From: a virus
Taxonomy: Duplodnaviria; Heunggongvirae; Uroviricota; Caudoviricetes
IMG/VR virus record: IMGVR_UViG_2711768021_000003
Length of the DNA: 9,514 nt
Reading direction: 5' to 3' (one strand)
In this document: in pieces, positions 3,784-4,132 of the stretch
Layout: each line of letters starts with the position of its first letter
Numbering within the stretch: the stretch's first letter is position 1
Made by a program: the position numbers and the translations under genes
The notes under the pieces: model-generated
Database searches by the model: none
The model's input: only the letters and a program-made list of their open reading frames with translations
Told to the model about the DNA's origin: nothing

Positions 3784-3812
3784 TTGCAGATGTGATGACA
3801 TATGGTTATTAT
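3784..3812 (+). promoter_or_regulatory. Candidate promoter for the tRNA cluster
   Basis: TTGCAG (3784-3789), 17 bp, TATTAT (3807-3812), about 10 nt upstream of the first tRNA 5' end. Sequence match only. Confidence 0.3.
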
Positions 3813-3821
3813 TCTGCCTCC

Positions 3822-3898
3822 GGCCCTTTAGCTCAGTTGGTCAGAGCGAGCGACTCATAATCGCCAGGTCGCTGGTTCAAGTCCAGCAAGGGCCACCA
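3822..3898 (+). tRNA. tRNA-Ile2 (anticodon CAT, lysidine type) or tRNA-Met
   Basis: Manual cloverleaf: acceptor GGCCCTT/AAGGGCC, D-arm TAGCTCAGTTGGTCAGAGC, anticodon loop CTCATAA (CAT at 3856-3858), T-arm GCTGGTTCAAGTCCAGC, 3' ACCA. Strongly resembles enterobacterial ileX-type tRNA. Confidence 0.85.
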
Positions 3899-3899
3899 A

Positions 3900-3976
3900 C
3901 CACCACTAGCTCATCCGGATAGAGCATCAACCTTCTAAGTTGACGGTGCGAGGTTCGAGTCCTCGGTGGTGGGCCA
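3900..3976 (+). tRNA. tRNA-Arg (anticodon TCT, reads AGA/AGG)
   Basis: Acceptor CCACCAC/GTGGTGG, D-arm TAGCTCATCCGGATAGAGC, anticodon stem TCAAC/GTTGA with loop CTTCTAA (TCT at 3934-3936), T-arm CGAGGTTCGAGTCCTCG, discriminator G, CCA. Confidence 0.8.
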
Positions 3977-3978
3977 GC

Positions 3979-4054
3979 GCCGACTTAGCTCAGCAGGCAG
4001 AGCAACTGACTTGTAATCAGTAGGTCACCAGTTCGATTCCGGTAGTCGGCACCA
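3979..4054 (+). tRNA. tRNA-Thr (anticodon TGT)
   Basis: Acceptor GCCGACT/AGTCGGC, D-arm TAGCTCAGCAGGCAGAGC, anticodon stem ACTGA/TCAGT with loop CTTGTAA (TGT at 4012-4014), T-arm ACCAGTTCGATTCCGGT (one mismatch), discriminator A, CCA. Confidence 0.75.
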
Positions 4055-4057
4055 TAT

Positions 4058-4132
4058 GCGGGCATCGTATAATGGCTATTACCTCAGCCTTCCAAGCTGA
4101 TGATGCGGGTTCGATTCCCGCTGCCCGCTCCA
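4058..4132 (+). tRNA. tRNA-Gly (anticodon TCC)
   Basis: Acceptor GCGGGCA/TGCCCGC, anticodon stem TCAGC/GCTGA with loop CTTCCAA (TCC at 4091-4093), T-arm GCGGGTTCGATTCCCGC, discriminator T, CCA. Closely resembles enterobacterial glyT-type tRNA. Confidence 0.85.

Follow-up and report, generated by a model that had tools for sequence, protein, structure and literature searches.

A four-tRNA cassette between the Q region and the lysis genes of an Escherichia coli lambdoid prophage: a probable supplement of scarce decoders

Why does a lambdoid prophage of Escherichia coli carry a packed set of four tRNA genes immediately ahead of its lysis genes, and which codons would these tRNAs serve? The question is raised by a stretch of 9,514 nucleotides (nt) from the IMG/VR virus record IMGVR_UViG_2711768021_000003, hereafter called the window, which is part of an E. 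coli lambdoid prophage. The tRNA cassette lies where the regulatory genes of this prophage give way to its lysis and packaging genes. An initial annotation of the window had described it as embedded in the late region, but the order of Q, terminator, tRNAs, and lysis genes places it at the early/late boundary, outside the structural late genes. We found that the cassette consists of four real and intact tRNA genes and that the set fits the codons whose demand in the phage most exceeds their usage in the host. We consider it rather probable that the cassette supplements scarce decoders for AUA, AGA/AGG, ACA, and GGA.

ARAGORN, run on the whole window, reported exactly four tRNA genes, all on the plus strand (Table 1). 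All four belong to the Rfam family RF00005, whose marks are a cloverleaf with conserved U8, A14, G18G19, U33, a purine at 37, and a GTTC T loop, with scores of 56.4–70.5 bits against a gathering score of 29 bits, and the E-values of 1e-10 to 1e-14 exclude a chance origin. The genes are separated by spacers of 1, 2, and 3 nt (A, GC, and TAT). A stem-by-stem check showed canonical cloverleaves with U33, A37, and an encoded 3' CCA in every member. The only non-canonical stem pairs were A27.C43 in tRNA1, A52.C62 in tRNA3, and one D-stem T.T in tRNA4, and the latter two are also present in the host genes thrU and glyT, respectively. The proposal of four closely spaced tRNAs with canonical cloverleaves was thereby borne out, and the isotypes and anticodons first assigned to them, Ile2/CAT, Arg-TCT, Thr-TGT, and Gly-TCC, were right.

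The codon usage of the phage was compared with that of 42 annotated K-12 genes (14,748 codons, taken from 50 kb of K-12). The prophage genes were those of the window with two relatives, and a larger set came from 70 cassette-bearing IMG/VR loci (59,840 codons). AGG (6.6-fold), AGA (6.4-fold), and ATA (4.3-fold) ranked first, second, and third among the 61 codons in both sets. ACA (2.9-fold) ranked fifth in the smaller set and seventh in the larger one, and GGA (2.25-fold) ranked eighth and ninth. By our own arithmetic, five given codons would all fall in the top nine of 61 with a chance probability of ~2e-5. The fourth and fifth ranks of the 70-locus set were held by CGG and CGA, which match the anticodon TCG found in the Shiga toxin (Stx) phage variant of tRNA2. 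Such a match is necessary for supplementation and is consistent with compensation, but it is no proof of it.

tRNA1 has the same acceptor stem, GGCCCTT/AAGGGCC, as the host tRNA-Ile(CAT), and the two genes agree at 71 of 77 positions; the agreement with ileZ of the Stx phages is 74/77. It has been reported that E. coli TilS needs the acceptor pairs C4:G69 and C5:G68 (PMC1635315), and tRNA1 has both pairs together with A73, the identity elements for TilS and the isoleucyl-tRNA synthetase (IleRS). Moreover, the Prokaryotic Genome Annotation Pipeline (PGAP) labels copies identical to tRNA1 as tRNA-Ile. Judged by its CAU anticodon, the TilS pairs, and these similarities, tRNA1 is a lysidine-type tRNA-Ile2 and a homologue of the host ileX/ileY and the phage ileZ. 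The host TilS would convert its anticodon from CAU to lysidine-AU, and the tRNA would then read AUA. This agreed with the lysidine reading of the CAT tRNA in the initial annotation.

For tRNA2, the acceptor stem CCACCAC/GTGGTGG starts with C1:G72 and carries the discriminator G73. The gene agrees with the Stx-phage argN at 64 of 77 positions and with the host argU at 58 of 77. The C1:G72 start had been pointed out as unusual; it is real, but it is no peculiarity of the window, as every surveyed argN family member has C at position 1, and by this comparison it is a trait of the whole family. The identity set of the E. coli arginyl-tRNA synthetase (ArgRS) is A20, C35, U36 or G36, and A73 or G73. 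tRNA2 carries A20 in its D loop (ATCCGGATA), C35 and U36 in the anticodon TCT, and G73, as in argU, and it may be charged by ArgRS. By its sequence, tRNA2 is a member of the Stx-phage argN family, an arginine tRNA (UCU) that is predicted to read AGA/AGG.

The window copy of tRNA2 is the best-scoring family member that we compared: it reaches 56.4 bits in Rfam, whereas the Stx argN has 43 bits, the PhiR47_1 'Lys' variant 40 bits, and the PPompW copy a score under the threshold. In most relatives, this gene has the anticodon TTT, a form annotated as Lys (L001 6095–6171, L008 2595–2670, and ~60 IMG/VR loci), in which C33 replaces the near-universal U33, the T stem has an A51.C63 mismatch, and the discriminator is T73. 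In other copies of the relatives, the anticodon arm is deleted. The low Rfam scores, C33, and A51.C63 of the 'Lys' form favour decay over an adaptive switch of the anticodon.

The two remaining genes closely resemble host genes. tRNA3 agrees with the host thrU at 74 of 76 positions, differs from it by the D-loop changes T16C and T20C, and has an identical anticodon arm, while tRNA4 is identical to the host glyT at all 75 positions. In the host operon thrU-tyrU-glyT-thrT, which is linked to tufB, thrU and glyT are parted by tyrU and a 116-nt spacer, and thrT follows. The window is without tyrU, the spacer, and thrT; only the two decoders of rare A-ending codons were kept, now 3 nt apart (TAT), and the cassette would be driven by a phage promoter. 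A comparison of the flanks of the Thr-Gly module with the host operon found no flank homology, and capture of thrU and glyT along with host flanks was rejected for this reason. The sequence identities indicate that the Thr-Gly module is a copy from the host operon. The remark that Thr and Gly differ from the Ile-Arg-Arg set expected of Stx phages was correct as to the composition, but these members are not exotic. Half of the cassette was copied recently from two host tRNA genes, and the operon's decoders of common codons were left behind, a clear case of selective capture. In relatives, the Gly copies show compensatory stem changes (C6T+G66A, G5T+C67A, and C49T+G63A), which suggests purifying selection on the folded tRNA structure.

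A promoter-like element was predicted ahead of the cassette. The promoter scan gave TTTGCA-18-TATTAT at 3783–3812 with 9 of 12 matches, and the −10 element ends 9 nt before the 5' end of tRNA1. The pattern TTG-N19-21-TAnnAT-N7-11-tRNA was found in 119 of 120 loci and in 13 of 14 upstream lineages, which differ from each other at more than 14 of 70 positions; shuffled sequences matched at a rate of 0.4%. The spacing between TTGCA and TATTAT is constant, as is their distance to the start of the tRNA, whereas the sequences of the 17-nt spacer and of the flanks vary. A similar layout is present upstream of the host tRNA-Ile2 gene. Taken together, these comparisons are good evidence for a dedicated cassette promoter with a very short leader, and they support the earlier suggestion that it may act in the lysogen; expression in the lysogen is plausible. 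The element had been noticed before, but position 3784, given as the start of the cluster, is the start of the −35 element and not of a tRNA. Transcription is predicted to begin at about 3819–3820, which would leave a leader of 2–3 nt for removal by RNase P. Another promoter-like sequence, TCGGCA-16-TATAAT at 4046–4073 (10 of 12 matches), lies at the junction of tRNA3 and tRNA4. It was set aside as a probable chance match, its −10 element being the D arm of glyT, identical in the host.

We suggest that this is a moron-type tRNA cassette, with its own conserved predicted promoter upstream as in a moron, which may have been inserted past the Q antiterminator region and its terminator and before the lysis genes. 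The sigma-70 promoter would start transcription 2–3 nt before tRNA1 and give a single precursor of ~315 nt; RNase P would cut the 5' end of each tRNA, and exonucleases would trim the trailers of 1–3 nt after the encoded CCA. During lytic growth, read-through of the upstream terminator by Q-modified RNA polymerase and genome amplification may add transcripts. The products would be extra copies of minor host isoacceptors (Ile2, Arg UCU, Thr UGU, and Gly UCC), whose cognate codons are two to seven times commoner in such prophages than in host core genes. Translation of phage genes, and probably of other genes gained by horizontal transfer, could thereby draw on a larger decoding capacity during lysogeny as well as during lytic growth. 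As for its make-up, the cassette is a mosaic of an older promoter-Ile2-argN module common to Stx phages and the Thr-Gly module copied from the host.

Several observations weigh against codon supplementation. The host codon sample was 50 kb of K-12 and not the true host genome. Enrichment of the cognate codons had been expected in the phage genes, and it was found in the prophage genes overall, but within the window the early genes showed more of it than the late ones, where ATA and AGA were not significantly enriched. Phage lambda, which has no tRNA genes, shows the same bias, with ATA at 8.5, AGA at 9.5, AGG at 4.6, ACA at 13.5, and GGA at 12.4 per 1000 codons, and these codons are likewise enriched in L132, a related prophage that lacks the cassette. 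Whether a phage carries tRNAs can therefore not be predicted from its codon bias. The match between codons and tRNAs, although real, is shared by the tRNA-less lambda, a warning against taking such matches as functional proof. In addition, tRNA2 is degraded or deleted in many relatives, so that at least this member must frequently be dispensable. The benefit of the cassette is probably modest.

Another explanation is that the cassette replaces host tRNAs destroyed by defence nucleases and does not serve codon matching; the enzymes in question are P2-OLD (Thr UGU), Gifsy-1 HepS (Thr), PARIS (tRNA-Lys), and colicin-like or PrrC-like enzymes. We regard such a supply of spare parts as possible but unlikely. 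It was reported in 2025 that P2-OLD blocks lambda by cutting the anticodon arm off the host ThrU, the tRNA-Thr (UGU), that its substrates have a paired CNG motif at nt 28–30 and 40–42 plus A37, and that phage Thr-UGU tRNAs rescue the cell, though only with both an altered CNG motif and a shortened stem (PMC12445682). In the case of Gifsy-1 HepS, Thr(TGT) is cleaved as a secondary target (PMC13043305). The paired motif and A37 are present in tRNA3 and tRNA4, and tRNA1 and tRNA2, which have diverged from the host genes, are without the motif; both points would suit the replacement of cleaved tRNAs. Nucleases also tend to hit scarce single-gene tRNAs, and replacement and supplementation predict similar anticodons.

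On the other hand, tRNA3 does not depart from ThrU in C28-T-G30, C40-A-G42, A37, or any of the five stem pairs; it shows neither of the two changes of the resistant tRNAs and is predicted to be sensitive to P2-OLD. Extra host ThrU gave little or no protection from P2-OLD, and grafting the ThrU anticodon arm on a resistant phage tRNA abolished its protection (PMC12445682). Since the ThrU anticodon arm is unchanged in tRNA3 and tRNA4 is fully identical to glyT, a resistance role is not supported for the window copy, and an anti-OLD function of its tRNA-Thr was rejected. We know of no nuclease that targets tRNA-Ile2 or tRNA-Gly UCC, and tRNA-Gly finds no mention in the main text on P2-OLD (PMC12445682).

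Relatives of the cassette bear on the same question. The majority of the surveyed Thr copies (63 of 79) are thrU or the D-loop variant of the window, and most of the others keep the host anticodon arm. Positions 42–43 were altered in three of the 79 copies, in two backgrounds and twice independently: G42T+T43C on the window-type background (L003 6329–6404 and L113) and G42C+T43C on the thrU-type background (L077). Either change costs the tRNA two pairs of the anticodon stem along with the CAG half of the P2-OLD motif, and the Rfam score is then 59.5 instead of 69.8 bits. These changes look like the published recipe for resistance. Nuclease-resistant phage tRNAs, such as Thr-UGU against P2-OLD and Lys/Tyr against PARIS and retron-Eco7, share with the window cassette the UGU anticodon and a carrier group restricted by P2-OLD, but their altered CNG motif and shortened stem are absent from the window copy. 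One could also imagine a still-evolving counter-defence module, in which prophages copy the lethal targets of prophage-borne nucleases (ThrU for P2-OLD and HepS, and perhaps glyT with its paired CNG motif), some lineages escape at positions 42–43, the anticodon of an evolvable C1:G72 argN scaffold shifts between UCU, UCG, and UUU under such pressure, and the window allele is an unescaped, freshly copied stage; we hold this to be quite doubtful. The Thr-UGU gene links the cassette family to the recently described P2-OLD and HepS tRNA nucleases, and the few relatives with resistance-type changes would allow a cheap experimental test.

It is improbable, in our view, that the cassette is a largely neutral passenger of a recombination hotspot between Q and the lysis genes, costless to the carrier and with members that slowly decay. 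The slot of the relatives holds interchangeable toxins, insertion sequence (IS) elements, and other tRNA sets, as such a passenger would lead one to expect. Decay is also visible in many loci, where tRNA2 is truncated or mutated, has lost its anticodon arm, or persists as the 'Lys' C33 variant at 40 bits or below the threshold, and lambda does without tRNAs at the same codon usage. However, all four genes of the window are intact, the promoter hexamers were kept across diverged lineages, and the compensatory changes of the Gly copies point to selection for structure. The anticodon set, moreover, matches the most under-supplied codons far better than chance, and no less than 80% of the 311-bp cluster, our measure for the cluster family, turned up in 603 (~11%) of 5426 complete E. 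coli genomes. Lastly, that the CAT tRNA is an elongator or initiator tRNA-Met is hardly credible and was rejected: this label comes from several GenBank phage records and from ARAGORN, where it reflects only the unmodified anticodon, whereas tRNA1 differs from metT/metU in every stem, including the acceptor, anticodon, and T stems, does not have the D-stem pair A11:T24 typical of initiator (fMet) tRNAs, and has the acceptor stem, TilS pairs, and PGAP label of tRNA-Ile described above.

Codon supplementation by a cassette of a known kind thus remains our preferred reading; identical clusters are already annotated in RefSeq, and the present finding matters mainly as annotation. The composition of the cluster was surveyed in 126 loci, namely IMG/VR viral contigs found via the tRNA1-tRNA2 junction, the window, and a few fetched relatives. 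The most frequent type was Ile2-'Lys'-Thr-Gly (43 loci), followed by the Ile2-Arg(TCT)-Thr-Gly type of the window (25 loci) and by Ile2 with a decayed second gene (~20 loci); Ile2-'Lys'-Arg was found in eight loci and the Stx type Ile2-Arg(TCG)-Arg(TCT) in four. The fused Thr-Gly module also occurs in Shigella flexneri, Escherichia ruysiae, Citrobacter braakii, and Enterobacter hormaechei. A Corallococcus exercitus contig (L143; 423 bp, coverage 0.67) carried the enterobacterial prophage Thr-Gly module as well, most likely by contamination.

A close known system is the ileZ-argN-argO cluster of Stx phages (Stx2a_F349, 933W type), and the tie that the initial annotation drew to it was supported. 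Both lie past Q and a terminator and before cargo and lysis genes, their first two tRNAs are homologous and separated by 1 nt, and the promoter TTGCA-N17-TATTAT is common to both. Unlike the Stx cluster, the window has no argO (Arg UCU) and carries Thr-UGU and Gly-UCC instead, tRNA3 agreeing with argO at 57 of 77 positions; its tRNA2 has UCU where the examined Stx argN has UCG. No stx operon follows the cassette. A gene for stx or another toxin after the tRNAs was ruled out: the holin is next, and the ~313 nt between tRNA-Gly and the inferred holin start, which are partly masked, are too little room. The cassette therefore marks the Q-to-lysis cargo slot of a lambdoid prophage, as a relative of the Stx-phage tRNA module without the toxin. 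In the Stx2a comparison phage, an Rfam match to the small RNA (sRNA) STnc100 (158.5 bits; L007 4169–4380) lies just downstream of stxB.

The tRNA clusters of T4 and T5 are likewise tightly packed, with spacers of a few nt and processing from a polycistronic precursor. They differ from the cassette in being larger, in their phage-specific sequences, and in belonging to lytic phages, whereas two of the four genes of the window are host copies in a temperate prophage. Among lambdoid phages, tRNA genes including Thr-UGU have been reported downstream of Q in 21, SfI, Sf6, ST64T, and PS3, together with an ACA bias in the SfI genome (PMC3636060). These phages (Asn-GUU and/or Thr-UGU) resemble the window, by description and not by sequence, in the slot, the Thr-UGU decoder, and the ACA bias, but their partner tRNA is Asn, and the window has four genes, of which two are host-identical.

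The features of the window are listed in Table 1.

Table 1. Features of the window around the tRNA cassette, with positions counted from the first nucleotide of the window
Feature	Position	Strand	Basis
DnaB-type helicase	196–1587		Pfam
RusA	1841–2212		Pfam
Phage_antitermQ protein (Q)	2181–2588		Pfam
Promoter-like site of immI-like module	2593–2622		Promoter scan
c4-a1b1	2616–2668		Rfam match
isrK	2629–2705		Rfam match
C4 antisense RNA	2731–2814		Rfam match
sRNA-Xcc1	2948–3031		Rfam match
ORF6N antirepressor-like protein	3063–3632		Pfam
Putative Q-cognate late-promoter block (pR'-like)	3650–3707	+	Synteny with VL40
Intrinsic terminator (tR'-like), 8-bp GC-rich stem, then T run	3708–3735	+	Terminator scan
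Predicted sigma-70-type promoter of the tRNA cassette: −35 TTGCAG (3784–3789), 17 nt, −10 TATTAT (3807–3812)	3784–3812	+	
C-rich segment TCTGCCTCC, from −10 element to tRNA1 5' end	3813–3821	+	Read from sequence
tRNA1, tRNA-Ile2 (CAT), predicted to read AUA	3822–3898	+	ARAGORN; Rfam 70.5 bits
tRNA2, tRNA-Arg (TCT), predicted to read AGA/AGG	3900–3976	+	ARAGORN; Rfam 56.4 bits
tRNA3, tRNA-Thr (TGT), predicted to read ACA	3979–4054	+	ARAGORN; Rfam 69.8 bits
tRNA4, tRNA-Gly (TCC), predicted to read GGA/GGG	4058–4132	+	ARAGORN; Rfam 64.9 bits
Downstream segment travelling with the cassette allele, runs into masked N stretch	4133–4271	+	Blocks in FDAARGOS_944 (100%) and VL40 (96.8%)
P21-type holin, C-terminus	ends 4661		Pfam
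Lysozyme	from 4661		Pfam
HNH endonuclease	5363–5713		Pfam
Small terminase, large terminase, portal	downstream to 9409		Pfam

The order around the cassette is Q, a c4/antirepressor insert, the tR'-like terminator, the tRNA cassette, and the holin. A block covering 3722–4271 is 100% identical in E. coli FDAARGOS_944, and one covering 3650–4271 is 96.8% identical in E. coli VL40 (L003). Each of the two strains has a Q-like gene on one side of the block and a holin on the other, and PGAP labels the tRNAs of the block as Ile, Arg, Thr, and Gly. No complete E. coli genome contained more than 60% of the window at one place in a whole-window search. The comparison points to a mosaic prophage. Position 3650 is the start of the segment found together with the cassette; in VL40, the homologous block starts 36 nt past the stop codon of Q, whose product is 82% identical to that of the window. 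The synteny suggests that 3650–3735 is a putative Q-cognate late promoter region with its terminator; the consensus promoter scan of 3650–3707 found no site with 9 or more of 12 matches. A stem-loop with a T run was found at the position of the terminator in five of six aligned loci, with differing loop sequences. The exception is the Stx2a phage, which has its own pR'/tR'-like hairpin further upstream.

Between the Q gene and the terminator/tRNA block, the window has a module like immI of P1/P7 (2593–3632). It amounts to ~1.07 kb extra compared with VL40, where Q abuts the conserved block, and it resembles an insertion.

On the other side of the cassette, PhiR47_1 differs from the window in the segment 4133–4271. 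The terminator scan found no terminator in 4133–4271, and the window is masked from 4272. In the relative L002, the first plus-strand terminator-like sites lie ~260 and ~610 nt past tRNA-Gly and would fall within the mask of the window. There are two N runs, 4272–4559 (288 bases) and 5023–5143 (121 bases), and the former extends over the last part of the spacer between tRNA and holin and the first part of the holin gene. The closest relatives, L002 and L003, have ~655 nt between the matches that flank this region; unless the mask misstates the true length, the prophage has a deletion of ~366 nt.

Further downstream, the HNH endonuclease gene is immediately followed by those of the small and large terminase, as is usual in HK97-like cos-packaging phages. 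Loci of differing late-region cargo were L132 (4878–6096), L133 (4010–4303), and L144 (5219–6368). Strain JNE23-001 has a scabin-related ADP-ribosyltransferase and a subtilase-family B subunit between the Q-like gene and the holin, and another related strain has iss and IS1 after the lysis genes. Phage SerU-LTIIb has LT-IIb toxin genes after the endolysin and, ahead of its holin genes, Arg-Gly and Thr-Gly tRNA pairs.

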